NCBI GenBank assembly: GCA_964455625.1
Contig: CAYVXZ010000002.1
Coordinates: forward strand, 60,949-124,948
DNA length: 64,000 nt
Direction of reading: 5' to 3'
Source of the DNA: an uncultured Planctomycetales bacterium
Lineage (GTDB): Bacteria > Planctomycetota > SBBH01
Shown here in pieces: positions 2,471 through 63,409 of this stretch; positions within the stretch are counted from its first letter, which is position 1; each line of letters starts with the position of its first letter. The position numbers and the translations under genes were made by a program. Under the pieces are notes generated by a model that saw nothing but the letters and a program-made list of their open reading frames with translations, did no database searches and was not told the DNA's origin.

Positions 2471-3789
2471 CGCCGGGAAAGGAAGTCTGGGTCCTGAAGC
2501 CGGACCGGTATTTCATCGATTACATGAAGGGGTTCCGCGCGCTGGGGCTCGACGCCCGGATGATCGAGGCCGCTGAGGCCGAGAGCCGGATCGCCGCCGG
2601 CGAGCGTCCCCTGTTCGTCGCCGGATACAATTTCGGGCCGTCCACCTTCCGGCACGTCACGGGGCGCGGGATACCGTTCGTCGCGATCCTGCTCGACCAC
2701 TGGTACTTCTCGACCCGTCAGGCGCTCACGGAGCGGCAGATCGGGATCAGCCGGGCCTTGGGCTTCTCCCCGCTGGTCACTCCACTTGACATCCACTTCA
2801 ATCCGGACCAGCCGGTGCGTCAGAAACTGCCTCCGATGGACCCGAAGCGGCTGTACGTCTTCACGATCGCGCCGGAACAGATCCCGCGATGGAAGGAGTT
2901 GGGGGTCGGCCGCGCGGAGCACGTCCAGTTCGGGGTCGATGCGCGGAGGTTTCGTCCCATGGAACTGACGGAGGAAGACCGGCGCCGTTTCGGGGCGGCC
3001 GTCTCCTTTTTCGGGTCGCCCCCTACCCTGAAAAGCCTGTGCCGGAAGCTCGTCACGAGCCTCTCGGCCGGGCAGGAGGTGGCCCCGACCCCGCAGGAAC
3101 GGGTCGTTTACGGCAAGCTGTCGGCACTCCTCGGGGACCTCGTGCGAAGGCAGTCCGAAGACCCCTTGCGCTACCGGATGCCGGAGATCCTGCCCGAACT
3201 CGAGGCCTGGCACCGGGTCCATTTCCTGGAGCCCGGCGGGCTCACCCCGTTCAAGGAGACGTGGCTGATGCAGATCGGCCTGCAGTATTCCCTGGAGCTG
3301 CGCGTGGCGCTGGCGCGGCGCCTGACTCCGTTGGGGCTTGCGGTGTGGGGCTCCCCGTCATGGGCCGAGTGCGGGATCGATGACCTCGACTACCGGGGGG
3401 AGCTCGACTGGGAGACGGAGGCCGCCAGGGCGATCAACGCATCCGACATCAACATCAACATCTCGAAGATCATCTTCCCGACGATGGTCGGGTCGCGCCC
3501 CTTCGAGGTCCTCGCCTGCGGCGGCTTCCTGCTCACCGACCGGTATACCGCGACGGACACGCTCTTCACGGACGGCAAGCATCTTGTCTTCTACACGGAC
3601 TTCGACGACCTGGAGGACAAGGTCCGCTATTATCTGGCCCATCCCCGGGAGCGGCGCGACATCGCCGAGCGGGGGCACCGGGCGTTCCTCGAGAACCATA
3701 CGCTGATGCACCGCGTGCGCCGGATCGTGGAGGTCCTGGAGGCGGACGGCGTGATCCCGTCTCCCGCGGCCGAGCCCGTCAGCGCCTGA
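2467..3789 (+). CDS. CgeB-like glycosyltransferase, paralog 3
   Basis: 440 aa ORF. ATG overlaps the stop of paralog 2 (ATGA). Same conserved blocks as paralogs 1 and 2. Resembles the spore-maturation CgeB / Glyco_trans_1_2 family. Confidence 0.75.
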   Translation: MTPGKEVWVLKPDRYFIDYMKGFRALGLDARMIEAAEAESRIAAGERPLFVAGYNFGPSTFRHVTGRGIPFVAILLDHWYFSTRQALTERQIGISRALGFSPLVTPLDIHFNPDQPVRQKLPPMDPKRLYVFTIAPEQIPRWKELGVGRAEHVQFGVDARRFRPMELTEEDRRRFGAAVSFFGSPPTLKSLCRKLVTSLSAGQEVAPTPQERVVYGKLSALLGDLVRRQSEDPLRYRMPEILPELEAWHRVHFLEPGGLTPFKETWLMQIGLQYSLELRVALARRLTPLGLAVWGSPSWAECGIDDLDYRGELDWETEAARAINASDININISKIIFPTMVGSRPFEVLACGGFLLTDRYTATDTLFTDGKHLVFYTDFDDLEDKVRYYLAHPRERRDIAERGHRAFLENHTLMHRVRRIVEVLEADGVIPSPAAEPVSA

Positions 3790-5757: not shown

Positions 5758-6453
5758 ATGGGAAACAGGTTTCTGGGTGTGGCGGTCGCGGCGACCCTGA
5801 TGATGGGGGTTGCTGCCCCCGCACACGCCGAGGGGAACGAGATCGTGAACGGGATGGGCAAGAAGCTCGTCCGCGGGTTCGTCGACACGTTCACCGGCAT
5901 CGTCGAATGGCCCGTCCAGACCTACAAGGGCTGGAACAACGGCATCAAATTCATCAAGAACGAGACGGGGTCGAAGATCACGGGGGGCGTCGTCGGGTTC
6001 CTCTTCACCGGGCCGAGCCACACGCTGGGCCGCACCGGTTCGGGGCTCCGCGACCTCTTCGGGTTCTGGACCGCCAACCCCAAGGACAATGACGGGGTGG
6101 GGACGCCGCTCGATGCCGAGTATTCCTGGGAGGAAGGGACGAAGTACGATTGCTTCGAGCCCAATCTCGGGGACGGGCTCCTCAAGCCCTGGGGCCGCAA
6201 GATCGTCCGCGGCGTCGGGAACGGCATCGGCGCGATCCTGGAGCTTCCCGGCCAGATCGTGAAGGGATGCAAGGAGGACAAGGTGGGTACCGGCATCGTG
6301 AAGGGGATCTGGTATCCCTTCAGCCGCGGCGCCTACGGGATCGGGGAGGCGTTCACCTTCTTCCTCCCGAACCACAAGGACAACCTCGGCCATGCCTTCG
6401 AGGAGAAGTGGCCCTGGGACGCCCTGGTGGGGAATTCCGGAAACGCGAAGTAG
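5758..6453 (+). CDS. secreted repeat protein resembling the exosortase-associated TIGR04073 family
   Basis: AGGAGG at 5745-5750 then ATG at 5758. Signal peptide MGNRFLGVAVAATLMMGVAAPAHA. Internal repeat units (KLVRGxxDxxTGxxExP.Q..KG ... GIxKGIWYPFSRGAYGIGEAFTFFLPN). Confidence 0.6.
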   Translation: MGNRFLGVAVAATLMMGVAAPAHAEGNEIVNGMGKKLVRGFVDTFTGIVEWPVQTYKGWNNGIKFIKNETGSKITGGVVGFLFTGPSHTLGRTGSGLRDLFGFWTANPKDNDGVGTPLDAEYSWEEGTKYDCFEPNLGDGLLKPWGRKIVRGVGNGIGAILELPGQIVKGCKEDKVGTGIVKGIWYPFSRGAYGIGEAFTFFLPNHKDNLGHAFEEKWPWDALVGNSGNAK

Positions 6454-6468
6454 TTCCGCGTGACGTCA

Positions 6469-6510
6469 GGACCCCGGAGGCCTGCCGGCCTCCGGGGTCT
6501 TTCTTTTTCC
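6469..6510 (+). terminator. rho-independent terminator
   Basis: GGACCCCGGAGGCC-tgcc-GGCCTCCGGGGTC perfect 13-14 bp stem followed by TTTCTTTTTCC. Lies 16 bp after the stop of the 5758..6453 gene. Confidence 0.6.
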
Positions 6511-6535
6511 GTCTTCTCTGCTAACGTGTCCCCGT

Positions 6536-7198
6536 ATGCGGAAGCGCGCGGCTTGGGCCGTCCTTTGCCTTGTCCTGTTCGCGGCCCCGGCCCGCGCCGA
6601 CGGGTTCGCGGCCACGGAGGACTTCTTCAAGGCGTGCGGGAACAAGATCCTGCGCGGCGCCGCGGACGTCCTCACCGGGTGGGTCGAGGTCGTGAACCAG
6701 CCGGTCAAGAAGACCTGGCGCGACGGTCCCGTCTCGGGGCTCACGCTCGGCCTCCTGAAAGGCGTCTGGTACGGGATCGGCCGCACGGCCCACGGGGCGG
6801 TGGAGCTCGCCACGTTCCCGCTTCCCAACCACCAGTCGAACGAGGATGTGGGGGTTCCGCTCGATGCGGAGTTCTCCTGGGAGGAGGGGGCCCCGGCGCG
6901 GCAGTACGGGCAGCCGATCGGGAACAAGCTCGTGCGCGGGGTGATCGACCTCTTCACCTTCTGGCTGGAGCTCCCCGCGCAACCCGCGGAGGGGACGCGC
7001 CAGCGCGGCGCCGGGCACGGCTGCACGGTCGGTCTCGTGAAGGGGATCTGGTTCACGCTCGGGCGGGCGGCGAGCGGCGTCCAGGAGACGGCGCTTTTCT
7101 TCTTTCCCAATCCGGTGGACACGGCGGGATACCCCTTCAGCAACCTGCGCGCCTGGGAGGGGTTCCGGCGCAAGGGGCCGCCGCCCGCGAAGGAATAG
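6536..7198 (+). CDS. secreted TIGR04073-like repeat protein, paralog 2
   Basis: Signal peptide MRKRAAWAVLCLVLFAAPARA. Same repeat architecture as upstream gene (KILRGAADVLTGWVEVVNQPVKK, GVWYGIGRTAHGAVELATFPLPN, GIWFTLGRAASGVQETALFFFPN). Confidence 0.6.
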   Translation: MRKRAAWAVLCLVLFAAPARADGFAATEDFFKACGNKILRGAADVLTGWVEVVNQPVKKTWRDGPVSGLTLGLLKGVWYGIGRTAHGAVELATFPLPNHQSNEDVGVPLDAEFSWEEGAPARQYGQPIGNKLVRGVIDLFTFWLELPAQPAEGTRQRGAGHGCTVGLVKGIWFTLGRAASGVQETALFFFPNPVDTAGYPFSNLRAWEGFRRKGPPPAKE

Positions 7199-7221: not shown

Positions 7222-8346
7222 TCAGCCCGTGATGCCCGAGCGCGCCTCGTCGAGGGTGATCCCCGCCAGGCGCATCCGGAGCGCCTCCGGATTCGGCGAC
7301 GCCTCCAGACCGGTCGCCTCGCTGATGGACCCTTCGACGATCAGCCGGTGGATCGAGTGGTTGAAGTCGTGCATCCCCTTCTCCTTGGCGCCGCGCACGA
7401 CGTCGGGGAGCTTGTGGTCCTCGGCCTTCCGGATCAGCTCCTTCACGATCGGCGTCACGAACATCACCTCGGTGGCGGGGACGCGCGGTTTCTCGGGTTT
7501 GAGGCCCGGCAGGAGCTTCTGGCAGACGATCGCCCGCAGGTTGAAGAAGAGCCCCAGGCGGATCTGGGCGTGGCGCGCCTCGGGGTAGAGCTCGAGGATC
7601 CGCAGGATCGACTGTCCCGCGCTCGCCGCGTGGAGGGTCGAGAAGACGAGGTGCCCCGTCTCGGCGGCGGCGATCGCGGCGTCGAACGTCTCGCCGTCGC
7701 GCATCTCGCCGATCAGGATCGTGTCGGGGTCCTGGCGCATCACCTGGCGCAGGGTCTCGCGGAACGAGGCGACGTCGATTCCCACCTCGCGCTGGGTCAC
7801 GAACGCCTTCCGGTCCACGATCACGTACTCGATCGGGTCCTCGACGGTGGCGATGTGGATCCGCCGCGTCGCGTTGATCTGGTCGAGGATCGAGGCGATT
7901 GTGGTGGTCTTCCCGGAGCCGGTCGGGCCGCAGACGAGGACAAGCCCTTCCTCGATCGCGAGGAGCCTTTCCATGGTGTCCTTCGGGAGGTGGAGGTCGG
8001 CGAAGCCGGGGATGCGGCTTTTCACGCGCCGCACGGCCATGGCGACGTTCCCCCGCTCGCGGAAGACGTTCACGCGGAACCGGTCGTCGCCCGAGGTGAT
8101 GGCGAGATCGACCGCGCCGACCCGGTTCAGCTCCGCCAGGTGCTCTTCCGAGAGGATCTCGTAGACCATTTCCTTGACGATCCCGGCCGTGAGGGGCGCC
8201 GTCTCGAGCGGCTTGCAGTCACCCGCCAGGCGCAGGACAGGAGGCGCTCCCGTCTTCACCAGGAGGTCGCTTCCCTCGTGCTTCACCAGCGCCTTGAGGA
8301 GCGTCTGGAGCGACGAGGATTTCGGGGATTCGCCTTGAACCGGCAT
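7222..8346 (-). CDS. pilT: type IV pilus retraction ATPase PilT
   Basis: 374 aa. Walker A GPTGSGKTT. PilT/PilU family blocks (RVNVF, LVFSTLH, GEMRD) throughout. Confidence 0.85.
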   Translation of the reverse strand: MPVQGESPKSSSLQTLLKALVKHEGSDLLVKTGAPPVLRLAGDCKPLETAPLTAGIVKEMVYEILSEEHLAELNRVGAVDLAITSGDDRFRVNVFRERGNVAMAVRRVKSRIPGFADLHLPKDTMERLLAIEEGLVLVCGPTGSGKTTTIASILDQINATRRIHIATVEDPIEYVIVDRKAFVTQREVGIDVASFRETLRQVMRQDPDTILIGEMRDGETFDAAIAAAETGHLVFSTLHAASAGQSILRILELYPEARHAQIRLGLFFNLRAIVCQKLLPGLKPEKPRVPATEVMFVTPIVKELIRKAEDHKLPDVVRGAKEKGMHDFNHSIHRLIVEGSISEATGLEASPNPEALRMRLAGITLDEARSGITG

Positions 8347-8361
8347 CGGAAGCGAGTGTAA

Positions 8362-8433
8362 AGGAGCCAGTAGTCAGGAGCCAGTAGTCAGGAGAAATCG
8401 GCCCACTTTTTGTTCTTTATTCTGGCTCCTGAC
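8362..8433. repeat. intergenic direct plus inverted repeat (GGAGCCAGTAGTCAG x2, then T-rich spacer, then inverted CTGGCTCCTGA)
   Basis: 15-mer GGAGCCAGTAGTCAG at 8362-8376 and 8377-8391. TCAGGAGCCAG pairs perfectly with CTGGCTCCTGA at 8423-8433. Lies between the AI-2E stop (8417) and the pilT start (8346), in the pilT leader. Confidence 0.5.
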
Positions 8434-9574
8434 TTCTGACCCCCGGTTTCCTCTTCGGTTCTTCACCCCATGTGGCAGTGATGTAGGGACGTGCCAGATC
8501 GGTCCAGAGGATCTTGGTGGCCGACGCGAGCGGGACGGCAAGAAGCACCCCGAACAGCCCCAGCAGCTTTCCGAAGGCGAGAATGGCGAAGATGATCATG
8601 ACCGGGTGGAGGCTCGCGGTCCGTCCCAGGATCACCGGGCTCAAGACCCCCTCGATCACCTCCGAGAGGATGAAGACCACCGCCACGCCGACCAGGGCCG
8701 CGGTCGAGGCATCCTGCGCCGCGGCGAGCATCAGCGCCACCCCGCCCACCCCGAAGAGGCTTGCCGCCGGGAGGAGGCTCAAGAGGCCGCCCGCGAATCC
8801 CAGGATGAAGGCGTACGGGACGTCGAGAAGCCAGAGGCCCAGCGCGATCACCAGCGCCTTGAGGAGGCAGACGAGCGAGCGTCCGAAGATGAACCCCGCC
8901 ATCGCCGTGTCGATCCGCGCGAGGATCGCGAGGGTCTTCGCCCGGATCGCGGGAGGGATCAGGGGGGGGACGGTCGCGTAGAGCGCCGGTATCTTTTCCA
9001 GGAAGTAGAAGGCGTAGATCGGAACCAGCACCAGGAACGACAGGAACGAGAAGGCGCTGGCGAGAGGCGCCGTCGCCCGCTCGCCGAACCAGGAGGCGGC
9101 GCGTCCCAGGCGGTCGGCGAGGTCCTCCCGGCGCTTCGGCTCGTCGAGGAAGATCCCGAGCAGTTTCACCGCGTCGTCGTAGTGGGGGACTTCGCTCACA
9201 CGGGCGCCGAGCTTCTCCGCGATCTTCTCGATCCCCGCGGGTTGACGCTCGATGTAGTCCTGCAGCCGCTCGGCCGAGCGGACCGACTGGCGGTAGATCG
9301 GGGGGATCGCGTAGAGCAGGGCCGCCGCGAAGAGGAGGCCCGCCGCGCCGTAGAGGAGGAGGATCCCCCGGAAGCGGGAGATCCCCTTGCGCTCCATCCA
9401 GGTGACCGTGGGGTTCAGGATGTAGGCGACGAGGGCCGCCAGCAGGAGGGGATTCAGGACCGCGCGCAGGAGGTAGCCGACCCAGATCGCGAGGACGAGC
9501 CCCGCGAGGACCACCCCGAGCCGCTTCCAGTCGGGGCTGCGGGCCGCCGTCACGGGCGCTCCGAGAGGGTGCAT
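8417..9574 (-). CDS. AI-2E family (UPF0118 / PerM-like) membrane transporter
   Basis: Track ORF trimmed to ATG at 9574 (MHPLGAPV). Multi-pass membrane protein with AI-2E-like TM pattern (FIFGRSLVCLLKALVIALGLWLL...). Confidence 0.7.
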   Translation of the reverse strand: MHPLGAPVTAARSPDWKRLGVVLAGLVLAIWVGYLLRAVLNPLLLAALVAYILNPTVTWMERKGISRFRGILLLYGAAGLLFAAALLYAIPPIYRQSVRSAERLQDYIERQPAGIEKIAEKLGARVSEVPHYDDAVKLLGIFLDEPKRREDLADRLGRAASWFGERATAPLASAFSFLSFLVLVPIYAFYFLEKIPALYATVPPLIPPAIRAKTLAILARIDTAMAGFIFGRSLVCLLKALVIALGLWLLDVPYAFILGFAGGLLSLLPAASLFGVGGVALMLAAAQDASTAALVGVAVVFILSEVIEGVLSPVILGRTASLHPVMIIFAILAFGKLLGLFGVLLAVPLASATKILWTDLARPYITATWGEEPKRKPGVRSQEPE

Positions 9575-9911
9575 GAGAACATGGGCTCTGACGCGGCGCG
9601 AGGGATCGCGGCCGATGGCGAGGCGCGGTGAGGAGGCAACCCTGGAAGAACGGGTTTCCGACGAGCCGCAACGACGCCACGCGGCCGCGAGACCCGCGCC
9701 CTGAAGGGTTGCGGGCACGGCCTGTTCACTAGTCCTTCCCTTACGAATCGAAGCAGCTTCACCCCCTCATTGGTCGCGCCCCTTCGGGTTGCGGCGGGGC
9801 ATGCCCGTCTGCCACGTCGCTCCTCTTCACCGTATCTCCCCTCAATACGCTTCATCGTCGCTCCTTGCATCCGGGCACGCCGCGCTCGCAACGCGTCGAG
9901 ATCCATGCTTC

Positions 9912-11216
9912 TCATGCACCCTCTACGATGAGGCTGCCCCCCTGTCCCCCGCCGATGCAGAGGGTGGCCAGTCCGTGCTGGACGCCGGCGCGCGCCATCT
10001 CGTGGAGGAGCGTGAGGACGAGCCGCGACCCCGTCGCCCCGACGGGATGGCCCAGCGCGATCGCGCCCCCGTTCACGTTCGTGGCCTCGCGCGGGAGGGG
10101 GCCCAGCTTCCCGGGGCGGCCCAGCTCTTTCCGGGCGAAGGCGTCGGAGTCGAAGGCGATCTCGTTCGCGATCACCTGCACGGCGAACGCCTCGTTGATC
10201 TCGATCCGTCCGATCTCCTTCATCGTGAGTCCCGCCTTGTCGAGGGCGGGGCCCGTCGCGTAGACGGGCCCGAGCCCCATCCGCGACGGCTCGAGGCCGG
10301 CATACGCCCAGCTCTTGAGGAACCCGAGGGGGGAATACCCTTCCGCCTTCGCGACATCCTCGCGCATGAGGAGCATCGCGACAGCCCCGTCGGTGATCTG
10401 GCAGGAGTTTCCCACCGTCACCGAGCCGAACCGCCGGTCGAAGTACGGCTTCAGTTTCGCGAGCGCTTCAAGGGTCTGCTCCTCCCGGGGGCCGACATCC
10501 GCCGCGACGGGGACGATCTCCTTCTTCCCCGCGAAGGCCGGGACGATCTCGGGAGCGAACCGCCCGGTCCGCGCCGCGGCGACCGCCCGCTTGTGGCTTT
10601 CGAGCGCGAAGGCGTCCTGCGCCTCGCGCGTCACGGAAAACTCGCGGGCCAGGATTTCCGCCGTTTTCCCCATGATCAGGCCGCAGGTGGGATCGGTGAG
10701 CCCCTGGACGAGGCTGATCTGCGGCGTCATCAGGGACGGCCGCCAGGCGAGGGCCGCCTGGAGCTTCCCCGGAAGCGACTTCTGGCGCGCGAGCCGCTCC
10801 AGGAATTTCCCGAACGCCTTGGGGTAGGAGATCGGGTAGTTGCTCATCGACTCGGTCCCGCCGGCGACGACGACCTTCGCCTCCCCGGCGCGGATCTTCT
10901 CGGCGGCCTGGGTCAGCGCCTCGAAGCCGGAGGCGCAGTTCCGGTGGACGCTCGCGGCGGGGGTCTTCGCGGGATACCCCGCCGTCAGGGCCGAGACGCG
11001 GGCGATGTTGGCGGAGTCCGACGGGGTGCCGCAGTTCCCCATGATCACGTGGTCGATCGAATCGGGGGAGATCCGGGTCCGCTCGACGATCTCCGCCAGG
11101 ACGATCCGTCCCAGCTCGGCCGCCGTGACGTCGTCGAGGGGGCCTCCCGCGCGGCAGAAGGGGGTCCTGACGCCGGCGACGATCGCGATCCGTGCGCCGC
11201 TAGTGGTGGTGGACAT
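9912..11216 (-). CDS. acetyl-CoA C-acyltransferase (thiolase)
   Basis: 434 aa. Thiolase N- and C-terminal signatures ([54 protein letters not shown]). Confidence 0.85.
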
Positions 11217-11907
11217 GTGCGTGGTCGTGGCCTCCCAACCCGATGAGAAGGAACGCGCCTGTCGCGGCCAGCACCAGGCCGCTCACGGTCTCGGCGTGCC
11301 GCTCCAGGAACGGCAGTTTCAGCTCCCGGTGGATCGCGAGCGCCGTCCAGGCCACCGCGAGGCTCGCCGCCACCGTCACGGCGAGATAGGTCCCCACCAG
11401 CGCCGCCTGGAAGGGGCCCGGAAGGCCGATCGCCCCGGCGAAGATCGGCACCGAGACGAAGCAGGGGCTCATTCCCGCCACCAGGACCAGGCTGACGAAG
11501 GTCGCCTTCCCCGCGAGGGAATCCGTATGGGCGTGCGAGTGCCCGTCATGCCCGTGGCTGTGGAAGTGCATGTGGAAGTGGGGGGCGCTCTTCTTGGAGC
11601 GCCAGAGCGCCCATCCCGCGTACGCCAAGCCAAACCCCACCAGGATCAGGCCGCCCGTCATCTCGATCCGCTCGTGGTACGGCTCGAACCGGTGAAGGAC
11701 GCTCTCCCCGGCCAGGATCGCGGCGATCCCGAGGATCACCGAAAGGAGGGAATCGCTCACGGCGCCCAGGCCCGCGGCCACAAGGGTCTTCGCCGTGGAC
11801 CAGCCCTGCTTTTTTCCCACAAGGACGAACGGCACCCAATGGTCCGGGATCAGGGCGTGGACGGCCGCGCTTCCCGCGGCGCCCGCCAGGAGCGGCCAGT
11901 GGAGCAT
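11200..11907 (-). CDS. His-rich metal (Ni/Co-type) transporter-like membrane protein (NicO/RcnA/HupE-like)
   Basis: Trimmed to ATG at 11907 (MLHWPLLAGA). Six or more TM segments. Central HFHMHFHSHGHDGHSHAH loop and C-terminal HDHAHVHHH. Confidence 0.5.
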   Translation of the reverse strand: MLHWPLLAGAAGSAAVHALIPDHWVPFVLVGKKQGWSTAKTLVAAGLGAVSDSLLSVILGIAAILAGESVLHRFEPYHERIEMTGGLILVGFGLAYAGWALWRSKKSAPHFHMHFHSHGHDGHSHAHTDSLAGKATFVSLVLVAGMSPCFVSVPIFAGAIGLPGPFQAALVGTYLAVTVAASLAVAWTALAIHRELKLPFLERHAETVSGLVLAATGAFLLIGLGGHDHAHVHHH

Positions 11908-12004
11908 CAGTTCGCTTGCCACGGCCCCGATTGTATCAGTGGTTTTGTGATTCGTGGTTCGTGTTTCGTGGCTCGCAGCCCGCGCCATGCCCGCGAATCA
12001 CGCT

Positions 12005-12832
12005 TCACGCACCACGAATCACGGGCCGGATCGTCTCGACGCGTGTCACATGTTCCGGCTGGAAGGCGAGGCGCCGGCCGTCCCCTGTCCGGATCACGAT
12101 CCCCTCGGAAAGCCCCGCGGAAAGGACCTCTCCCTCATGGATCCCGCCGGGGGTCTCGACGCGCGCCGGCCGGCCGGCGAGGTCCGACCGCTCCCGCCAG
12201 GCGGTTTCCAGGGCGGCGACATCTCCCCGGGCCGCGTCGCGGTAGAGCGTTTCGAGGCGCGTCAGGATCGCCGCCAGGAGCGCCCGGCGATCGGTTTCGC
12301 GACCCGTTTCCGTCCGGACCGAGGTGGCGGTCCCGCGGATCTCCGGGGGCCAGTCTTCCGGAAGCGAATTCGCGTTGAGCCCGATCCCGACGACGTAGGC
12401 GGGGCGCCCCTGGATCTCGCGCGACTCGGCCAGGATCCCGCAGAGTTTTTTCTCGCCGACGTACAGGTCGTTCGGCCAGCGGATCTTAAGACCGACCTGC
12501 GCGAAGCGCGAAGCGCGAAGCGAATCACTGGACGCTTCGCGCTGGACGCTTCGCGAGTCTGGAAACCTCTTTTCCAGTGTTTCGCACACGGCGACCGCCC
12601 CGAGCGCCGTCACGACGCCGGCGGGCGCGAGCGGCCGCGCCGGATGCAGGAAGATCGAGAAGAGGAGGTCCTTGCCGGCGGGGGCGTGCCAGGTCCGGCC
12701 ATGGCGCCCTCGCCCGGCGGTCTGCCGGTCGGCCGCGACGCAGAGAAAGTCCGCCCCGCGCGCGGGACCCTCGATCCAGGCCGCGTCGTTCGTGGAGGGG
12801 ATTTCGGGAAGCCAGAGAGGATCGGTGGTCAC
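12005..12832 (-). CDS. birA: biotin--[acetyl-CoA-carboxylase] ligase BirA, with an in-frame insertion of about 20 aa
   Basis: GRGRHGRTWHAPAG and KIRWPNDLYVGEKKLCGILAE are BirA catalytic-core motifs. An extra RFPDSRSVQREASSDSLRASRFAQ segment is encoded by the palindromic repeat at 12498-12557. Confidence 0.75.
   Translation of the reverse strand: MTTDPLWLPEIPSTNDAAWIEGPARGADFLCVAADRQTAGRGRHGRTWHAPAGKDLLFSIFLHPARPLAPAGVVTALGAVAVCETLEKRFPDSRSVQREASSDSLRASRFAQVGLKIRWPNDLYVGEKKLCGILAESREIQGRPAYVVGIGLNANSLPEDWPPEIRGTATSVRTETGRETDRRALLAAILTRLETLYRDAARGDVAALETAWRERSDLAGRPARVETPGGIHEGEVLSAGLSEGIVIRTGDGRRLAFQPEHVTRVETIRPVIRGA
12498..12557. repeat. GC-rich palindromic element, copy 1, in-frame inside birA
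   Basis: (GCGAAGC)x3 ...ACTGGACGCTTCGCGCTGGACGCTTCGCGAG. The GCGAAGCG half and the CGCTTCGC half are reverse complements. Confidence 0.7.
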
Positions 12833-13830
12833 GGGCGTCGTGCGCCCCCGGCGGGGGGGATCGGACGAAGGTCCATCGCGATGTCGAGCGCCGGGGCCGA
12901 GTGCGTGAGGGCGCCCACCGAGATCCGGTCGACGCCGGTCGCGGCGATCGCGCCGACCTTGGCGAGGGTCACGCCGCCCGAGACCTCGAGAAGGGGGCGG
13001 TGGCCTTTCAGTCCGCGCACGAGGCGCACCGACTTCCGGACACCAGCTAAGGACATGTTGTCGAGGAGAAGGATGTCGGCGCCCCCTTGCCCCGCGGCGA
13101 GCGCCTCGTCGGGTGTCGTCACCTCGATCTCGATGGGGGAGCCGCGCGGCGCGGTCTTGCGCGCCAGTTGAACAATCTGCCGGTAAAACTCAGCGGATCG
13201 CGAAGCGCGAAGCGCGAAGCGTGAAGCGCCTCGCTTCGCGCTGGACGCTGGACGCTTCGCGAGGGCGATGTGGTTGTCCTTCACCAGCACCTGGTCGAAG
13301 AGGCCGATCCGGTGGTTGTCGCCGCCGCCTGTCCGCACGGCGTGCTTTTCCAGCAGGCGCATGCCGGGAAGGGTCTTCCGCGTGTCGAGGATCCGGCATC
13401 GGGTCTTTCTCGCGGCCCGGACGAACCGGCGCGTCTGCGTGGCGATCCCCGAGAGGTGCTGGAGGAAGTTGAGGGCCGTCCGCTCGCCGGCGAGCAGCGC
13501 CCGCGCGCTCCCGTACACCTCGGCGAGGCGCGTCCCTTTCCGGACCGCGTCGCCGTCCGCGGCGAGCGTCTTCACGAAGGCATCGGGGTCGATCCGGGTG
13601 AAGAGGGGCCGGAGCAGGGGGAGCCCCGCCACGACGCCGTCTTCCTTGGCGGCGAATGTCCCGATCGCGGCGAGGTCTTCCGGGATCAGCGCGTTCGAGG
13701 TCACGTCCCCCGGCCCGATATCTTCCGCGAGGGCCGCGCGCAGGAGATCCTGGATCTCCGGGAGATCGGGATTCAGGGAGGAACGGCGCCGCATGTCGCC
13801 AAGGTTAACCGACTGCGCGGGCAGATTCAC
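12829..13830 (-). CDS. nadC: nicotinate-nucleotide pyrophosphorylase (carboxylating) NadC, with an in-frame insertion of about 22 aa
   Basis: QPRTase motifs (ILDTRKTLPGMRLLEKHAVRTGGGDNHR, LVKDNHIA, ADILLLDNMS). Insertion PASSAKRGASRFALRASRSAEF is encoded by palindromic repeat copy 2. ATGA overlap with the birA start. Real start may be the internal ATG at 13794. Confidence 0.8.
   Translation of the reverse strand: MNLPAQSVNLGDMRRRSSLNPDLPEIQDLLRAALAEDIGPGDVTSNALIPEDLAAIGTFAAKEDGVVAGLPLLRPLFTRIDPDAFVKTLAADGDAVRKGTRLAEVYGSARALLAGERTALNFLQHLSGIATQTRRFVRAARKTRCRILDTRKTLPGMRLLEKHAVRTGGGDNHRIGLFDQVLVKDNHIALAKRPASSAKRGASRFALRASRSAEFYRQIVQLARKTAPRGSPIEIEVTTPDEALAAGQGGADILLLDNMSLAGVRKSVRLVRGLKGHRPLLEVSGGVTLAKVGAIAATGVDRISVGALTHSAPALDIAMDLRPIPPAGGARRP
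13196..13266. repeat. GC-rich palindromic element, copy 2, in-frame inside nadC
   Basis: ATCGCGAAGCGCGAAGCGCGAAGCGTGAAGCGCCTCGCTTCGCGCTGGACGCTGGACGCTTCGCGAG. Same GCGAAGCG/CGCTTCGC arms and CTGGACGCT core as copy 1. Confidence 0.7.
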
Positions 13831-13868
13831 GGGACCCCGGGGAGACCCGCGTGGTTATATTGGAAAGG

Positions 13869-15236
13869 ATGCTCAAGCCGACGATCCGGGCCTTCGGGTG
13901 GATTCTCGCGTGCGGCGCGGCACTGGCCGGCGGGGAGGAGAGCGGCCGGATCCGGGCGCTTCTGGCGCGGTTGGGCGACCCCGAGGTCCAGGTCCGCGAG
14001 GAGTCGTTCGGGGCGCTCGCGACGCTCTGCCTGGAATCTCCCGAGGCGGTTCTCGCGACCCTTCCCCGGGAGGAGCCGGATCCCGAGGTGGCCGAACGCC
14101 TGGCCGACTTGAGGAAACGCGCCGACTGGGAGGTCGCGCGGCGCCGGGCGATGGCGCTCGCTGGCGGGGACGCCGACCTGCGGGACGCTGTCGAGAGGCT
14201 CTATCGCGATCCGACCCCGCAGACGGTCGGCGCCCTGGCGCGGGGGCAGGTGTCCGGAGGCGCGCGCCGCCCGGACCCGGCCGCCGTCGCGGCGATCGCG
14301 GCCCCTTTTCTCGGGCATCCCGAGAGGCAGATGCGTCTTTCCGCGCTCGGCGCGGTCGGGGCCGCCGGAACGGGGGCCCGGGAATTCGTCGGGGCGATCA
14401 CGTCGCTCCTGGCCGATCCGGACATGCAGTTCCGCCTCCAGGTGATCCAGGCGCTCCAGCGGATTCCGTGTCCCGAATCGGCGGCGGCGCTGGAAGGGCT
14501 CCTGGCGGATCCGAACAATACGGTGCGGATCCACGCGATCTCGGGGCTCTCGAACCAGAAGTTCAGGTTTCCGCCGGAGCTTCTCGCCCGGCTCCTGGCC
14601 GACCCGGACGACAACGTCCGCACGCACGCCCTGAACGCCCTCGGGACCACCGTTCCGGACGCGCTGGTCCCGACGGTGATCGACCTCTCCCGGCGGGGCG
14701 GGAGCGGGACCCGTTACGCGGCGGTCCAGAAACTCGCCTTTTGCGGCGGAGACCGGAAGGCGGTCCTTGCCGCGGTCGCCGCGGCATCGGAAGACCCGGA
14801 CGCGAACGTCCGGCAGTCCGTCGCGATCGTGGCCGGCAAGATGAGAGACCCTTCCGGGAAGGGGATCCTGGAGAGGCTCGTCCTCGACCAGGCAGACAAC
14901 GTCCGGTACCAGACGCTTCTGGCGATGGGGGAATGGTGCCGGGAAGACCCTGCTTTCGTCCGGATCCTGGCCGCGCATCTGGCCGATCCCGTGCCGGGGG
15001 TGGTCCCCGCCGCCGCACAGGCCCTGGCACGCGTGCTGGACCAGCCTGAATGGATCCGGAACCCCGCGGCTGCCGCCGACTGGTGGAAGACCCACACGGA
15101 TTCCTGCCGCGACGCTGCCTGCCCGTACCGGTGCCGCGAGCCGTTCACGCCCCGTCCGACGGAGCGGCGTAACCTGCCGGAGGACGAGGAGCTCAAGATG
15201 AAGCTGATGCAGGAAGAGGGGATCGAGTTCGAATAG
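13869..15236 (+). CDS. secreted HEAT (PBS-lyase-like) repeat protein
   Basis: GGAAAGG then ATG at 13869. Signal peptide MLKPTIRAFGWILACGAALAG. Repeated LxDPDxxVRxxAxxAL units. Confidence 0.6.
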   Translation: MLKPTIRAFGWILACGAALAGGEESGRIRALLARLGDPEVQVREESFGALATLCLESPEAVLATLPREEPDPEVAERLADLRKRADWEVARRRAMALAGGDADLRDAVERLYRDPTPQTVGALARGQVSGGARRPDPAAVAAIAAPFLGHPERQMRLSALGAVGAAGTGAREFVGAITSLLADPDMQFRLQVIQALQRIPCPESAAALEGLLADPNNTVRIHAISGLSNQKFRFPPELLARLLADPDDNVRTHALNALGTTVPDALVPTVIDLSRRGGSGTRYAAVQKLAFCGGDRKAVLAAVAAASEDPDANVRQSVAIVAGKMRDPSGKGILERLVLDQADNVRYQTLLAMGEWCREDPAFVRILAAHLADPVPGVVPAAAQALARVLDQPEWIRNPAAAADWWKTHTDSCRDAACPYRCREPFTPRPTERRNLPEDEELKMKLMQEEGIEFE

Positions 15237-20083: not shown

Positions 20084-23000
20084 ATGCCGGAACGCGCCCG
20101 CCGGGGGGTCGTGCTGGTGCTGGTCACCGGATTGGTCGTCATGATCGGCATGGCCGGGACGGTCCTTCTCCAGGTATCCGCCTTTTCGCGGATCCGGGTG
20201 AAATCGGCCGTCCTGTCCGCGGAGGCGCGCCTCGCCGCCGGAGCAGGACTCGAATACGCCGTCGGGAGACTCTGGCGGGATTCCCTGGCGATCTCTGATC
20301 GCGGTCTCGCCATGACGGCCGCGAACCGCCGGGACGACTGGACCTCGCGCGGGAACGCCTCTCCGGCGACGCCCCCGTCCCGGCTTCACAACCCGTCGTA
20401 TGCGCGGGGTGAGCCCTGGATCGACGTGGCCCCGGGGGACGGGATCTACGCGCCGGGAACGGACGGCCCCTCCCCGGGGGGGGATCTGGACGGCGACGGG
20501 CATCTGGACGTCGCGAGCGGCCGGTTGCGCGGCTCACCCTCGAGCCTGTTCTTCCTCCGGATCCGGCCGGCCGGCGCCGGCGTCTGCATCAACAGCGGGG
20601 AGCTGGGGGCCCTGACGGGGGACCATGACCTCGACGGTGTCCTGAATGCGGACGATACCTCGGCATCCGCCACGAGCGGTCCTTACCGGACCGACCTCGA
20701 CGGCGCGTACGGGGATCATGACGGGGACGGCCTGGCGAACGGCGACGATCCCGATTTCCCGGGCCCCTTGGGGAACGGCGTCCCGGACTGGCGCGACCCG
20801 GCGTTCATCGGGAACCGGCATCTGGTGAACCTCCTCGACAACCTGGGGGCGATCCTGGACCTCTCCGTCAAGCAGACGGGTGTTCCCTACAGCGCGCTTC
20901 CCGGCCACGGGGCGCTCGGGACGGTCGAGACCTCCACGCTGGGGATCCTCGTGGTGGCGAACCGCCCGCGCGGTGGGTACGGCGCGGTGGAGGACCTGAA
21001 GCCGTTCCTGTCTCCGGCCGACCATGCGCGGGTCGCGCCGTTCCTCTGCACGCAGGCGCGGATCGTTCCGGTCCCGTTCCCGGTCGACGAGCCGTGGAAC
21101 AAGGACAGCGGCTACGCCAGGCTGATCGCCTCCCCCGAATCGCGCCACGAGTTCCACGCCCTCGTCGATTTCAACGGCGCGCCGGAGGAGGTGCTGGCCG
21201 CCACCCTGCGGCACCTCTGCGCCTCCGGGTCGTCTGACGGGATGATCACCTTCGTCGATCCGGCGCCCCCCACCACGCAGTTCATCCGGATCGGCGGGGC
21301 GGAGGGGGACGCGATCGCGAACAGGCTGGCCCAGGCGCGTCCCTTGCATGCCTGGAAGGATTTTTTGACGGCGTTGCATGTCTCGGCAGCGTCCGCCTTC
21401 GAGGACGATCCTTTCACCCGGACCACCGCGGGCGGGCTCCCGGTGGACGAGGGGACCGACCCGGCCCTGAAGCGCCGCAAGGAGGACCTGATCCTCGCGC
21501 AGGCGATGCCCGGGGGGTATTTCGCCGATCCGCACGCGTGGCGCGCCAATTCGCTCGAGGTCCCGCGCGAGGCGGCGTTTCCCCCTGTCGGGATCGACGC
21601 GACCGACCCGCGGCGCCTCTCCAAGGAATACATGGCCGGTCCGGTGAACACCTTCCCGTTCGACGGGGCGGGGAACGGGATCCTGGACCTGTGGAACGGC
21701 CTCCAGGACCTGCCGGCCCGGATCACGACGGAGTATTCGCTCGCCCCCTGTCGTGAGGCGTTCCGGGTCGAGTCGGAGGGGAGCGCCGGGGAAGGGCGCG
21801 CCCTGGCGTCGGCGGACGGGGAGATCTCCCTGGCCGCCGGATCCCTCGAGCTTTCCGGACAGCAGGTCTTCGAGATGCGTTCCACGGTGGAGCGTCCGGT
21901 CTCGCCGGCCTTTCCCTGGCGCCTGTCCGGCGGCCACGCGCGCGTCGAGGCGGCGGCTCCCGGAGGGGCGGGCGCCTGCACCGTCCCGAAGTCCGACATG
22001 GACTGCTACCACTACACCGGGTTCGGCGCCCCCCAGCCCTGGATGGTCCGGAACGACCGGTACCCGCGCGCGACGGGCGGCGTGACCCTCGAGCCGGTGC
22101 GACTCCCGAAGGACGCGCTCTCGGTCGATCCCCTGACGGGAAACGCCTGCCTTTTCGGCATCCCGTTCAATCCGGACCGTTTCTCGGTGCCCGGCGTCCC
22201 CGAGGCGGGGACCTGGTACGCCACTCCGAACGTACGTCAATGGCAGGACAACCTGGGGGATCCGCTTCTCGATCCGGTGACGGGAAGCCGCCGGAGCCCC
22301 GACCCGACGGGATTTTTGAGCCTGGTCAGTCCGGCCACGACATCGCTTCCGCCGCTCCTGCATACCGGGCTCTCGTTCGGCCCCTCGGGGCCGCGGTTCG
22401 ACCATTCCCCTGTCCTCTGCACGGGGTTCGTCTGGGACGGCGTGACGAACGTCCTGCCGCCGACCCTGGTGTCCCCCGCCGGCCGCCTCCGCGACGTCAC
22501 CGTCGCGTTCTGGTACCCCGCCGGCCGCCAGGAGACGCTGGGAGGACAGGGGGGGACACCGCTTGCCACCAAGGTCGCCCTGCAATACCTGAACGCCGGA
22601 TTCTTCTCGGACATCCTCCTGGTTGACCTGGCGAACGAGGGGCCGAAGGTCTCCGGGCTCCTGCCGCCCCAGTATCCTGCCGTCTGGTGGCTGGCGGATC
22701 CCGCCCTCGCGCAGGCCGGATGGCACCACATCGCCTTCACCTTCGACGCGGCGGGAGACAACGTTTCCTTGAGGGTGGAGGGGGTGGACGCCGGCACCTT
22801 CGCGGTTTCCGCTCCGGGATCGGTGCCGTCTGTCTTCCGGCTGGCGATGACAGGACCGGTCGACGACCTGCGCGTCTTCCACCCGGGGCTTTCGGGCCCC
22901 GCGATCGAGGCGCTGACGCGGGAACCCCGATATCCCCTGTCCGGGAACTTCACGACGCCGCGGTTCCGCCTGGATCCCGTCCGGTTCCCGTCGGGAGTGG

Positions 23001-23341: not shown

Positions 23342-24511
23342 AGCGTTTCGCGCGCCTGCCGGAAGTCCGGCGAGGGGGTCCGCGAGCCGTCCGGCCAGCT
23401 TCCCGAACGTCCCGCCGAAGCGCGCCAGGAGCGCCGCCCCGTCTCCCGCGGAAGCGGGGGACGAGACCGTTTCCAGCACCACCCGCACGCACCCCAGATA
23501 GTCGGCCAGGTGGATCCGCTCGGGGGCGATCCGGCCCCGCGGGCTCATGTTGTGGTAGTTGATCAGGGGAAGCGCCATCGCGCCGGAGCGAAATCCCGAG
23601 AGGGTGAAGGCGCTCGCCTCGCATCCGCCCCCCGTCATGAGGGCGCGCTGGAACCTGAATTTCCTGTCGCGTGCGGAAATGCGCTCCGCCGCCGACGTGA
23701 GCGCGAGCGTGATCTCCGGGTCGAACGTCATGATCCGGTCGCCGGTCCGCACGATCGGCCCCGCGCCGGCCGCCACGCCCGGGACGCGGCAGGAGCTCGC
23801 CTCCACGTTGACGATCCGGGCGTTTCGCGGGATCAATCCCGACCGGACCGCGCCCAGGGCCCCGATGAATCCCGCCTCCTCGCCGCGCGTGAGGAGCGCC
23901 ATCACCGTCGCGGAAGACCGCGCGCGCGCCGCGGCCGAGACCACGGAGGCGGCGACGGCGCATCCGGCCAGGTCGTCGATCGATTTCGACGAGACGATCC
24001 CGCCGTCGAGGGAATACGGGACCAGGTCCCACGAGCCGAAATCCCCCCGGGAAACGGGGCGGGGAAGGTCGAGCCGCATCGTCGTCACGCGTTTCGTCTG
24101 CGGGTCGAGCGCGATTCCCGTCACGCGCCCCCGGACCTGGCCGTCCGGCGTGTAGACGACGACGCGGGCGTCCCGGAAGAAGTCGGGCCGGACCCCGCCC
24201 GTCCACTGGGCGCTCGCTTTCCATCGGGCGCTCGCTTGCGCTCGCTTGGCGCCGGTGGTTTTGCGGGCAGGTGTGCAGTCGAGGATCGTGAATCCCGGAT
24301 GGTCCAGGTGCCCGGTCACGACCCACGGCCTGCCGCGCCCCGTCCCCTTCCAGGTGACCAGGAGATTGCCGTGTGCGTCCCGCTTCAGGCGGAGGCGGCG
24401 CGCGCGTGAAAACGCCTCGACCTTCGCCATGAGCCGGTGCTCGTGGAAGGGGGCGGTGGGTGTCGCGATGAAGTCGGCGAGGATCCGGGAGGCTTCCTGG
24501 ACGTCCATCAT
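23327..24511 (-). CDS. M42-type (FrvX-like) metallo-aminopeptidase
   Basis: Trimmed from the 1070-aa GC-artifact ORF to ATG at 24511 (MMDVQEAS). VVTGHLDHPGF, DDLAGCAVAASVV and TRGEEAGFIGA resemble the M42/M20 metal-binding blocks. Confidence 0.6.
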   Translation of the reverse strand: MMDVQEASRILADFIATPTAPFHEHRLMAKVEAFSRARRLRLKRDAHGNLLVTWKGTGRGRPWVVTGHLDHPGFTILDCTPARKTTGAKRAQASARWKASAQWTGGVRPDFFRDARVVVYTPDGQVRGRVTGIALDPQTKRVTTMRLDLPRPVSRGDFGSWDLVPYSLDGGIVSSKSIDDLAGCAVAASVVSAAARARSSATVMALLTRGEEAGFIGALGAVRSGLIPRNARIVNVEASSCRVPGVAAGAGPIVRTGDRIMTFDPEITLALTSAAERISARDRKFRFQRALMTGGGCEASAFTLSGFRSGAMALPLINYHNMSPRGRIAPERIHLADYLGCVRVVLETVSSPASAGDGAALLARFGGTFGKLAGRLADPLAGLPAGARNASAER

Positions 24512-59652: not shown

Positions 59653-60261
59653 TCGCGGTGGCGCTCGCGGGGTCCGGCCGCATCGGGAGGACGACGAACC
59701 GTTCGGCGATCGGGGCAAGGCGCCTTTTCGCGTCCGCGATCCCGCGGCGCGCCGGAAATCCGGGCCGTTCGCCGGTCGCGATCCGCGTCCTGTCGAGGAG
59801 CTCCCCGACGCGGTGCCAGGTGTGCAGGATCTCCAGGGAGTCGCTCCCCATCACGAGGAGGATCTCGGCATTCCGGCCGGCGCGCCGCCGGATCCGCCCG
59901 ACCGTGTCGATCGTGTAGGAGACCCGCCTCGGGCGGCGAAGCTCGCCGTCGTCGACCCGGACCGGGAACCCTTCCGCGCGCAGGAGCCGCGCCGCGATCC
60001 GCGCCATCGCGAGGCGGTGGCGGGGCGCCGCGAGGCGCCGGCCCCGCTTGTGCGGGGGGATCGCCGCCGGGACCAGGAGCAGTCGCGCGAGTCCCAGATT
60101 CCGGCAGGCGGCGCGCGCCAGGCTCATGTGTCCCCGGTGGATCGGGTCGAACGATCCTCCCAGGATGCCGATGCGAGGGGTGAGGGGTGAGGGATGAGGG
60201 GTGTGCAGGGGATTTTTTTTGACCCCTGACCCCTGACCCCTGACCCCTCGAAGTTGCGGCA
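59540..60261 (-). CDS. nadD: nicotinate-nucleotide adenylyltransferase NadD (start uncertain; N-terminus may be encoded by the heptad repeat)
   Basis: RIGILGGSFDPIHRGHM (HxGH motif) and downstream NMNAT blocks. Only in-frame ATG upstream of the conserved core is at 60261, which would add MPQLRGVRGQGSGVKKNPLHTPHPSPLTP translated from the repeat. Convergent 113-bp overlap with the tilS 3' end. Confidence 0.6.
60172..60249. repeat. composite heptad element copy 1: (GGGGTGA)-type G-rich arm, T8 run, (GACCCCT)x4 C-rich arm
   Basis: GAGGGGTGAGGGGTGAGGGATGAGGGGTGTGCAGGGG-GATTTTTTTT-GACCCCTGACCCCTGACCCCTGACCCCTC. Arms can pair with one G-G mismatch per heptad. Each strand carries a G4 motif of four G3-4 tracts. 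Confidence 0.7.
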
Positions 60262-63310: not shown

Positions 63311-63409
63311 GAGGAGGGGTGAGGGGCGAGGGGTGAGGGGACAACGGCCTGCACAAGGTTTGTCATTTTTTTTCTTTCTCTGACCCCTGACCCCTGACCC
63401 CTGACCCCT
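63311..63409. repeat. composite heptad element copy 2: G-rich arm, spacer with T8 run, (GACCCCT)x4
   Basis: GAGGAGGGGTGAGGGGCGAGGGGTGAGGGG...TTTGTCATTTTTTTTCTTTCTC-TGACCCCTGACCCCTGACCCCTGACCCCTG. Same architecture as 60172-60249. Lies between the pduO-like gene and the adh start. Confidence 0.7.

Follow-up and report, generated by a model that had tools for sequence, protein, structure and literature searches.

Two genes of an uncultured Planctomycetales bacterium, birA and nadC, each carry a complete GC-rich hairpin in frame within their coding sequence. They lie in a 64-kb stretch of contig CAYVXZ010000002.1, hereafter the window, to which all coordinates refer unless the locus of a relative is named. 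A first-pass annotation of this DNA had proposed two related palindromic copies in these genes, and both are indeed present, at 12499-12557 in birA (copy 1) and at 13199-13263 in nadC (copy 2). We consider it likely that these hairpins are inverted tandem-heptamer arrays with three to four units per arm, of a type that is common between genes in this clade, also occurs in other phyla and has here come to lie within two coding regions. This view is based on direct reading of the sequence, repeat statistics, folding, AlphaFold modeling and the comparison of relatives.

The birA hairpin lies inside the minus-strand open reading frame (ORF) 12005-12832 and consists of a left arm GCGCGAAGCGCGAAGCGCGAAGCG at 12499-12522, in which GCGCGAA is repeated 3.4 times (that is, (GCGAAGC)x3), a spacer AATCACTGGAC at 12523-12533 that contains GAATCAC, and a right arm GCTTCGCGCTGGACGCTTCGCGAG at 12534-12557 that reads GCTTCGC-GCTGGAC-GCTTCGC. 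The nadC hairpin, inside the minus-strand ORF 12829-13830, has a left arm CGCGAAGCGCGAAGCGCGAAGCGTGAAGCGC at 13199-13229 with 4.4 copies of CGCGAAG, the loop CTC at 13230-13232, and a right arm GCTTCGCGCTGGACGCTGGACGCTTCGCGAG at 13233-13263 composed of GCTTCGC-GCTGGAC-GCTGGAC-GCTTCGC. Tandem Repeats Finder (TRF) reported a period of seven in both hairpins, with 3.4 copies in birA and 4.4 in nadC at a 91-100% match, and an autocorrelation scan agreed. When paired as direct repeats by a repeat finder the two hairpins are 83% identical over 59 nt. Their units are ordered differently on the coding strand, A-B-A-B in birA and A-B-B-A in nadC, and they also differ in arm length and loop.

Both hairpins are compact, at 59-65 nt and 70-80% GC, with predicted stems of about 21-25 pairs and arms separated by 3-11 nt. 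Folded as the mRNA strand, the birA hairpin reaches -45.1 kcal/mol (z -5.9) and the nadC hairpin -44.7 kcal/mol (z -4.1). Perfect arrays or dimers of GCGAAGC occur in the window in these two hairpins only; with up to two mismatches there are 8 matches to the unit against 1.13 expected, a number that was reached in none of 100 shuffles. Three independent Logan assemblies (SRR8109491-3) encode an identical NadC, and two of the three contain a BirA gene call of 275 residues, the same length as in the window, so that an assembly artefact is unlikely.

The host genes are well defined by their domain matches. The birA ORF encodes a group I biotin protein ligase of 275 aa (PF03099, E 8e-21) and the nadC ORF a quinolinate phosphoribosyltransferase of 333 aa (PF02749, QRPTase_N, and PF01729, QRPTase_C, E 6e-52), and nadC overlaps the start of birA by 4 nt. 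Both ORFs are intact and both hairpins are in frame, in agreement with what the first-pass annotation had read from the sequence. Read on the coding (minus) strand, the birA hairpin encodes ..SRSVQREASSDSLRASRFA.. and the nadC hairpin ..AKRPASSAKRGASRFALRASRSA.., and the roughly 20 Ala/Ser/Arg-rich residues that each had been said to add, quoted as ..SRSVQREASSDSLRASRFAQ.. and ..SSAKRGASRFALRASRSAEF.., were recovered. Peptides predicted from the translation of the inserts include SVQREASSDSLR, ASRFAQVGLK and GASRFALR.

Precisely at the insert points of BirA and NadC, the proteins of solved structure and the distant relatives are shorter by 16-23 residues, as expected from the suggestion that these regions are short elsewhere, and alignments to the solved structures split into two blocks that flank each insert. 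We then created AlphaFold2 models of both proteins from 100-sequence alignments, a check for disordered loops that had been proposed at the outset. The mean predicted local distance difference test (pLDDT) scores were 91.4 for NadC and 89.1 for BirA, and the drops in both models are confined to the termini and the inserts: pLDDT is about 65 at NadC residues 191-210 and about 50 at BirA residues 91-110, falling below 50 at 95-101 and 104-108. Given the split alignments and the confident folds, the inserts therefore form additional loops on enzymes that are otherwise intact. Together, these data show that both hairpins are translated in frame as low-confidence loops of about 20 residues, at positions where a varying length is tolerated in both enzymes. 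We considered and rejected that the inserts are spliced out or bypassed, on the grounds that there are no stops and the frame is intact; a pseudogene reading was likewise rejected for both genes, which are conserved and whose folds are confident. A HMMER search with the 33-aa NadC insert against 1.84 billion proteins gave no match, with a query too short and of too low complexity to be informative.

Protein searches returned a small clade of relatives with 65-77% identity in NadC and 51-71% in BirA, and the DNA of their loci (numbered with an L) was compared with the window. One of them, L002, is Planctomycetales bacterium Bin_31, found at 68% identity in a NadC search of a genome collection. 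Synteny is kept across the clade in the order nadC, birA, membrane protein, thiolase, AI-2E transporter. At the BirA site, L001 and L006 carry the same GCGAAGC hairpin as the window. The finding that the first-pass annotation had set against its own proposal, orthologous segments lacking the palindrome, was thus not made, as both the segment and the palindrome are there. A codon alignment gives 92% nucleotide identity between the birA hairpin and those of L001 and L006, compared with 72% for the rest of birA; at third codon positions the figures are 90-95% for the hairpin and 57-60% for the rest of the gene (Fisher p 0.007, from approximate counts rebuilt from the codon-alignment fractions). 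The right arm is invariant between the window and L001/L006, and the few changes all fall in the loop or the left arm. L001 and L006 also retain the peptide ..LRASRFA.. in BirA. By this alignment the birA hairpin keeps its nucleotide sequence, not its peptide, and the strong nucleotide conservation suggests that its DNA or RNA stem is under constraint. By the same comparison, the birA hairpin is shown to be old, predating the split from relatives with about 70% identical BirA and having been inherited vertically, almost unchanged, since then.

Other members of the clade differ at the BirA site. The hairpin of L002 is another one, (TCCTGAG)n/(CTCAGCA)n, which folds with z -5.0 and in which the heptamer that would give an in-frame TGA is mutated from TCCTGAGT to TTCCAAGT. 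The site is decayed in L003 (z -0.3), and there is no insert in L008 or in the relatives P0126 and P0128. We found no recognisable target-site duplication on comparing filled and empty orthologous sites, the sequences being too diverged for boundaries to be fixed.

The history of the nadC site is different. Here L001, L004, L005 and L008 have (GGGGTCA)3-4 with an A-rich tail behind it, which is translated as ..GSGVRGQKK..; being only half-hairpins, the elements of the relatives do not fold (z +0.6). In L002 the site holds (CATGGGC)n with the same A-rich tail as in the relatives with (CAGGGGT)n, encoding ..GAAAACTG.., and this array is a concerted change of unit in place. L003 is decayed and keeps the tail alone, and NadC relatives at about 56% identity have no insert. 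The GCGAAGC hairpin is found at this site in the window only, where it stands without the A-rich tail. The distribution shows a nadC site that ancestrally held (GGGGTCA)n with an A-rich tail, and a GCGAAGC hairpin present only in the lineage of the window, as a recent replacement.

Period-7 arrays are a general feature of this clade, occurring at 21.8 per 100 kb compared with 6.5 in 1.38 Mb of loci from other phyla. In the clade, arrays with periods of 5, 6, 8 and 10 occur at 0-4.4 per 100 kb and those of period 9, a multiple of three, at 10.5, making seven the dominant period among non-multiples of three. This abundance agrees with the heptamer excess attributed to Mrazek (2007) in PMC4679880, where heptamers are given as the most abundant class of long simple-sequence repeat in bacteria and polymerase slippage is suggested as the cause. 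Two of the six hairpins of the window are inside ORFs. All 17 hairpins in the 1.38 Mb of other-phylum loci, a sample too small to yield a rate, appear to be intergenic, including two apparent in-ORF candidates that proved intergenic on checking.

A heptamer array runs through all three reading frames every 21 nt, and its unit decides whether it can be translated. By computation, GCGAAGC/GCTTCGC and GCTGGAC give no stop codon in any of the six frames, and a complete hairpin of the GCGAAGC type can therefore be tolerated within an ORF. A perfect GGGGTCA/TGACCCC hairpin, in contrast, contains TGA in one arm whichever strand is read, and this commoner type persists in ORFs only as a stop-free half or in a stop-free orientation. 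A third in-ORF heptamer hairpin was observed in L001 at 6457-6527, (GGGGTCA-like)4/(CCCCTCA)4 with z -4.4, lying in frame within a FecR-like anti-sigma gene (6019-7152, minus strand) directly after the FecR domain. The stop logic fits the cases at hand, as NadC of the relatives holds the G-rich half only and the FecR-like hairpin of L001 is in the stop-free orientation.

A metagenome scan with (GCTTCGC)x3 matched at least 120 contigs from unrelated organisms with GC contents of 27-76%, and only 2 of 83 had a complementary arm, the rest being plain arrays; since its hosts are unrelated and nearly all its hits are plain arrays, the scan gauges a common simple repeat and not this element. Long mixed GCTTCGC/GCTTCGA arrays beside gene ends were also seen on many contigs of a single organism or community with a GC content of 70-76% in metagenome Ga0196963 (L098, L139, L143, L146, L149, L152 and L160), which shows that GCTTCGC is a common unit far beyond the clade of the window. 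Separately, Blastocatellia/Acidobacteriota loci have long heptamer hairpins on one or both sides of nadC, all apparently intergenic (L065:9865-9994 and 10865-10959; L071:10861-10975; L075:4816-4966; L078:2740-2828 and 3702-3789; L058; L072). Their units include (GGTGTCA)4-5/(CTGAAAC)4-6, with one mismatch per unit, and (GATGTCA)n/(TGACATC)n.

Four further hairpins in the window have a like architecture built from different units, with fold z scores from -3.7 to -7.5, and all are at or straddle gene boundaries. The nearest to the coding copies is a (GTGNTTC)x4 ... (CACGAAN)x4 hairpin at 11947-12023 (z -4.1), between birA and the downstream membrane-protein gene, into which the final five codons and stop of birA extend; its unit GAATCAC is also found in the spacer of copy 1. 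The window and L001 share this boundary hairpin; L006, L002, L003 and L008 lack it at the orthologous site, and there the motif GATACAATC comes directly. That motif is found in every clade member and lies in the window at 11925-11935 (minus strand), just upstream of the membrane-protein gene; it reads GTTACAATC in L003 and GGTACAATC in L008, with a core TACAATC that is invariant in the window, L001, L002, L003, L006 and L008, and it looks like a -10-type promoter element. The hairpin overlaps the birA stop as well as the annotated start of the membrane-protein ORF, whose first approximately 27 residues (MARAASHETRTTNHKTTDT...) are probably encoded by the hairpin and not real.

Two of the remaining hairpins are rich in G. 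A (GAGGGGT)x4 - T8 loop - (GACCCCT)x4 hairpin lies at 60172-60250 upstream of a sigma-54 activator gene (z -7.5), and a (GAGGGGT)x4 - 40-nt T-rich loop - (CTGACCC)x4 hairpin at 63313-63412 (z -4.8) between two minus-strand genes, one for cobalamin adenosyltransferase and one for alcohol dehydrogenase. Both have loops containing T8 and one G.G (or C.C) mismatch per heptamer, with stops in all three plus-strand frames and none on the minus strand. With four GGGG tracts in each G-rich arm, a G-quadruplex is possible at both sites. The adenosyltransferase ORF (63363-63980, minus strand) ends in a C-terminal tail GSGVRGQGSEKEKK that is encoded by the right arm and loop of the hairpin, A-rich on the coding strand, and the (GGGGTCA) array and tail in NadC of the relatives are the same arm-plus-loop sequence in the same frame. 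The last hairpin has a 14-nt unit, (AGGAGCCAGTAGTC)x2.4 ... CTGGCTCCTGACTTCTGAC, and lies at 8362-8444 at the distal end of the nadC-birA gene string (z -3.7), covering the last 28 nt (the 3' end) of the AI-2E transporter ORF (8417-9718, minus strand) and continuing beyond its stop. No Rfam family, and no rRNA, was matched anywhere in the window at gathering thresholds. A scan of 8000-14200 for sigma-70 promoters and intrinsic terminators found nothing, and a role as a terminator is consequently unsupported.

At the junction between nadC and birA there is a heptamer hairpin in L005 and L006, a larger one in L002 and none elsewhere in the clade. In L002 (L002:5736-6198) it is formed by (GAAATGA)4, 390 nt and (TCATTTC)4, and the 390 nt encode a 131-aa protein of PF05635 (E 9e-32), also matched by the four helix bundle family TIGR02436 and weakly similar to Avd of diversity-generating retroelements. 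Proteins of this family are 23S rRNA intervening-sequence proteins (IVP). We therefore surveyed IVP genes in L002, four further bacterial or metagenomic loci, one locus from the (GCTTCGC)3 scan and 36 IMG/VR loci, giving 38 distinct genes (6 bacterial or metagenomic and 32 from IMG/VR); homologue P0303, with ten copies of one conjugation-operon locus, was counted once. Flanking inverted repeats with a score of at least 14 were found at 26 of the 38 genes and both arms were clearly 7-periodic at 17, compared with none of 68 shifted controls in either case. The flanking unit differs at almost every locus (GTCATGA, GGGAGTA, GTTGGCT, GAGAGTG, AACGTTC and others), and heptamer brackets were seen at L223:2900-3460, L226:400-950, L213:1400-1930 and L210:2330-2960 and among L227-L262. 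The arms at L210 consist of GCTTCGC and CTGG.. units and thus resemble the window element.

In the 64-kb window and the clade loci besides L002, neither tblastn nor hidden Markov model searches detected a PF05635 homologue. The only literature precedent we found for heptamer repeats with IVP or four-helix-bundle genes is the Coxiella 23S rRNA intervening sequence (IVS), where the S23p ORF follows two to three GACAGAT heptamers and RNase III cleaves a terminal stem of 28 bp (PMC4990558). It is plausible that the ORF-less hairpins are the empty form of IVP cassettes. We would put forward only tentatively the wider proposal that heptamer hairpins are the ORF-less form of a widespread, unrecognised cassette in which inverted heptamer arrays enclose an Avd-like four-helix-bundle gene.

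Among objects already described, the GGGAATC arrays of Xanthomonas come closest and have the same architecture, with 70-75 convergent pairs and a preference for four units (Rehm et al. 2015, PMC4692102). That paper also describes inverted pairs of GGGGAYT heptamers in Nostoc and cites the short tandemly repeated repetitive (STRR) heptamers of cyanobacteria. Arrays of this type are enriched in non-coding DNA and depleted in ORFs. Like these pairs, the window hairpins have tandem 7-nt units, about four per array, in convergent arrays that lie close by and can form a stem-loop, and the GAGGGGT arrays share the four G4 tracts. The Xanthomonas and Nostoc pairs lie mostly between genes of the same direction near stop or start codons, which we count as a further likeness. 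They differ in that the present hairpins belong to another phylum, use many units per genome, occur in frame in conserved enzymes and are conserved across species; a link to IVP genes is not described there. The G-tracts found in those pairs are matched only by the (GAGGGGT)x4 hairpins at 60172 and 63313, as GCGAAGC, GCTTCGC and GCTGGAC have no G-runs, and a G-quadruplex reading is therefore inapplicable to the GCGAAGC type.

Rickettsia palindromic elements (RPE), reportedly a subject of work by Ogata and colleagues in 2000, form AT-rich families of 100-150 bp with a defined consensus at many dispersed loci, and reside in frame where they add surface peptides without destroying function. The first-pass annotation had likened the present hairpins to them, and the part of this comparison that stands is the occurrence of palindromes in frame in surface loops of protein genes, a likeness that is functional and not structural; the picture of a single 60-70 bp consensus element transposed into both genes is not supported. 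The hairpins are 59-65 bp long and 70-80% GC, are built of tandem heptamers that lack a fixed consensus, undergo turnover at one fixed site and number two copies in 64 kb. By length, composition and missing consensus they fail the definition of an RPE family, and with about 75% GC against AT-rich elements, homology to RPE-1 to RPE-8 would be very unlikely; these elements are also mentioned in PMC10969869.

Repetitive extragenic palindromic (REP) sequences, with their bacterial interspersed mosaic elements (BIME) and the REP doublets forming hairpins (REPIN) associated with tyrosine transposases (RAYT), are extragenic, have a genome-specific consensus headed by GTAG or CGTC, and number in the hundreds (PMC3333891, PMC3116915, PMC3733652). 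They resemble our hairpins as short, imperfect, GC-rich palindromes that are repeated, mostly intergenic and may act on mRNA ends, but the latter are tandem heptamers with variable units, and two copies are intragenic. The birA and nadC hairpins have no GTAG, and CGTC occurs only within GCGTCCA units, not terminally, so that membership in REP/BIME fails by location and by head. TAACTGA heptamers, known as direct repeats in Beggiatoaceae, cyanobacteria and Bacteroidetes with one indirect repeat reported (MacGregor 2015, PMC4679880), are also arrays at gene boundaries in which one orientation has stops in three frames and the other is stop-free and occasionally within ORFs, mainly at protein termini. 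In contrast to the inverted pairs of the window, those arrays are direct, use a single unit per genome and have not been reported in frame in the middle of an enzyme.

The likeness to 23S rRNA IVSs (Coxiella, Leptospira, Salmonella; Warrier et al. 2016, PMC4990558) lies in a 20-30 bp terminal-repeat stem placed in a tolerant loop of an essential molecule, in the heptamers beside the ORF in Coxiella, and in the existence of forms with and without an ORF, to which the IVP-bearing hairpin at the L002 nadC-birA junction may be compared. The differences are that the hosts are the protein genes birA and nadC and not rRNA helices 9, 25 or 45, and that the loops are 3-11 nt without an ORF. As the segment is translated, removal by RNase III cannot be the host's way of coping, unlike in an IVS. 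Since ORF-less IVSs exist, kinship is conceivable even with the ORF missing.

Based on these comparisons, the reading that we prefer is one of heptamer arrays that turn over in place. Arrays would extend and homogenise through replication slippage, a process with a documented bias towards heptamers, and the complementarity of the arms would be maintained by repair templated on the hairpin or by selection for the stem. The nadC copy may stem from its counterpart in birA, 700 bp away, through template switching or gene conversion over a short range, with no transposase involved, and the element within the proteins would be a tolerated passenger. The two hairpins share an alternation of GCGAAGC and GTCCAGC as well as a window-specific GCGTCCAG where L001 and L006 have GCGTCCGG, and we infer copying from birA to nadC as the simplest reading.

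Several points weigh against this account. The mechanism of slippage and conversion is itself one that we infer from patterns in the sequence alone. Neutral slippage and homogenisation by themselves leave unexplained why the birA hairpin changes several-fold more slowly than synonymous sites, and the alignment of the window with L001 and L006 contains no compensatory substitutions in that hairpin. The evidence for a nadC copy derived from birA is limited to a shared vocabulary of units, proximity and one informative site, and the loops are unrelated. For birA of L002, independent insertion at a permissive loop is indistinguishable from turnover in situ. The census of GCGAAGC copies, finally, covers 64 kb of the genome.

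The alternatives differ mainly in what they take the hairpin to be. It is possible, although we regard it as doubtful, that the hairpins are an ORF-less derivative of an IVS-type element, with a PF05635 gene in the loop of a heptamer-array stem, that landed in or was copied into coding loops; this is compatible with our preferred reading as to the content of the window and differs on origin. It would account for an IVP ORF between heptamer arrays and an ORF-less hairpin at the same nadC-birA junction in L002 and in L005/L006, respectively, for the bracketing of 26 of 38 IVP genes and none of the 68 controls, for the GCTTCGC and CTGG.. units at L210, and for the heptamers and 28-bp stem of the Coxiella IVS (PMC4990558). 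Yet the window and the other clade loci gave no IVP gene by tblastn or HMM, the ORF-less hairpins of L002 do not reuse the IVP-flanking unit, and heptamer arrays are very common without an IVP gene, so that IVP genes might settle in pre-existing hairpins or be favoured by selection when located in them. We also know of no mobility mechanism for IVS elements. That the peptide is a by-product of a selected cis-acting structure on the nadC-birA transcript or DNA, such as an RNase III site, a translational pause or a punctuation mark, seems unlikely to us. It would explain why the birA hairpin is the most conserved DNA of its gene while the loop it encodes is predicted to be disordered, why L002 has an equivalent hairpin of unrelated sequence at the same site, and why related hairpins punctuate gene boundaries in the clade and in Blastocatellia. 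This is difficult to reconcile with the absence of a birA insert from L008, P0126 and P0128, with an L003 element (z -0.3) and nadC half-hairpins (z +0.6) that do not fold, and with the lack of compensatory changes, of an Rfam family and of a terminator or promoter consensus.

A transposable element of RPE type or of the kind of miniature inverted-repeat transposable elements, with a defined consensus of 60-70 bp that is mobilised by a transposase and inserted in frame into ORFs, we hold to be improbable. Two related copies 700 bp apart in two genes, residence in frame in surface loops as in RPE, and presence/absence polymorphism of related hairpins at orthologous sites all have this appearance. 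Against it, there is no unique consensus, the number and order of 7-nt units differ between the copies, the other hairpins of the window use unrelated units, units have changed in situ at orthologous sites (as with (CATGGGC)n and the same A-rich tail in L002 NadC), no target-site duplication was recognisable between filled and empty sites, and the (GCTTCGC)3 scan returned mostly plain arrays in unrelated organisms, with 2 of 83 as hairpins. We give almost no credence to lineage-specific protein segments under protein-level selection with incidental palindromy, or to an assembly artefact. The conservation of ..LRASRFA.. in BirA of L001 and L006 would agree with selection on the protein, but third codon positions are as conserved as the others, the fold energy is far beyond that of shuffles, and the same nucleotide repeat is found in two unrelated proteins at sites of low AlphaFold confidence. 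An artefact is at odds with identical sequence in three separate assemblies and with homologous hairpins in independent samples.

A few other repeats in the window deserve mention in their own right. The third, looser relative that the first-pass annotation had placed at 24205-24250 does lie in an M42-like peptidase ORF, but was rejected as a further copy: it is a direct repeat of the decamer GCGCTCGCTT, with no complementary arm, no stem and no excess folding energy (z -0.43). The decamer is present in 2.1 copies, together with an earlier partial copy, and encodes ..AKRAQASARWKASAQW..; it is neither palindromic nor kin to the heptamer hairpins. At 61869-61921, downstream of the sigma-54 activator gene, the tandem 18-nt unit CCGGAACTGTTTACCGCC is present in 2.9 copies with a 97% match and scores higher in TRF than any other repeat of the window. 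Within two large genes, a motif of 40-50 nt recurs many times at 36039-36915 and 41192-42302 (also 20471-20522) and encodes repeats of the GDVNGDG type (FG-GAP/VCBS-like). At the very start of the window, positions 1-248 are linked with 1978-2225, about 1.7-2.1 kb apart, by two inverted-repeat pairs, one of 48 nt with 85% complementarity and one of 63 nt with 75%, which may represent paralogous gene segments in inverted orientation.

In many bacteria, no long simple repeats are as over-represented as the heptameric ones. Here, the same two protein loops can be traced through about eight lineages that include long stasis, concerted change of unit, decay and wholesale replacement, which turns heptamer arrays at fixed sites into an evolutionary series open to dating and testing. 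Essential enzymes can carry a complete 60-bp GC-rich hairpin in frame that is better conserved than their own codons, and this extends the in-frame palindrome phenomenon of the Rickettsia elements to a high-GC, free-living lineage and to another kind of repeat. If the cassette proposal is true, one element family would cover 23S rRNA IVSs, much of the bacterial heptamer excess and the in-frame palindromes in birA and nadC. The IVP brackets, if confirmed genome-wide, would tie heptamer repeats to 23S rRNA intervening sequences and provide a handle on the origins of both.

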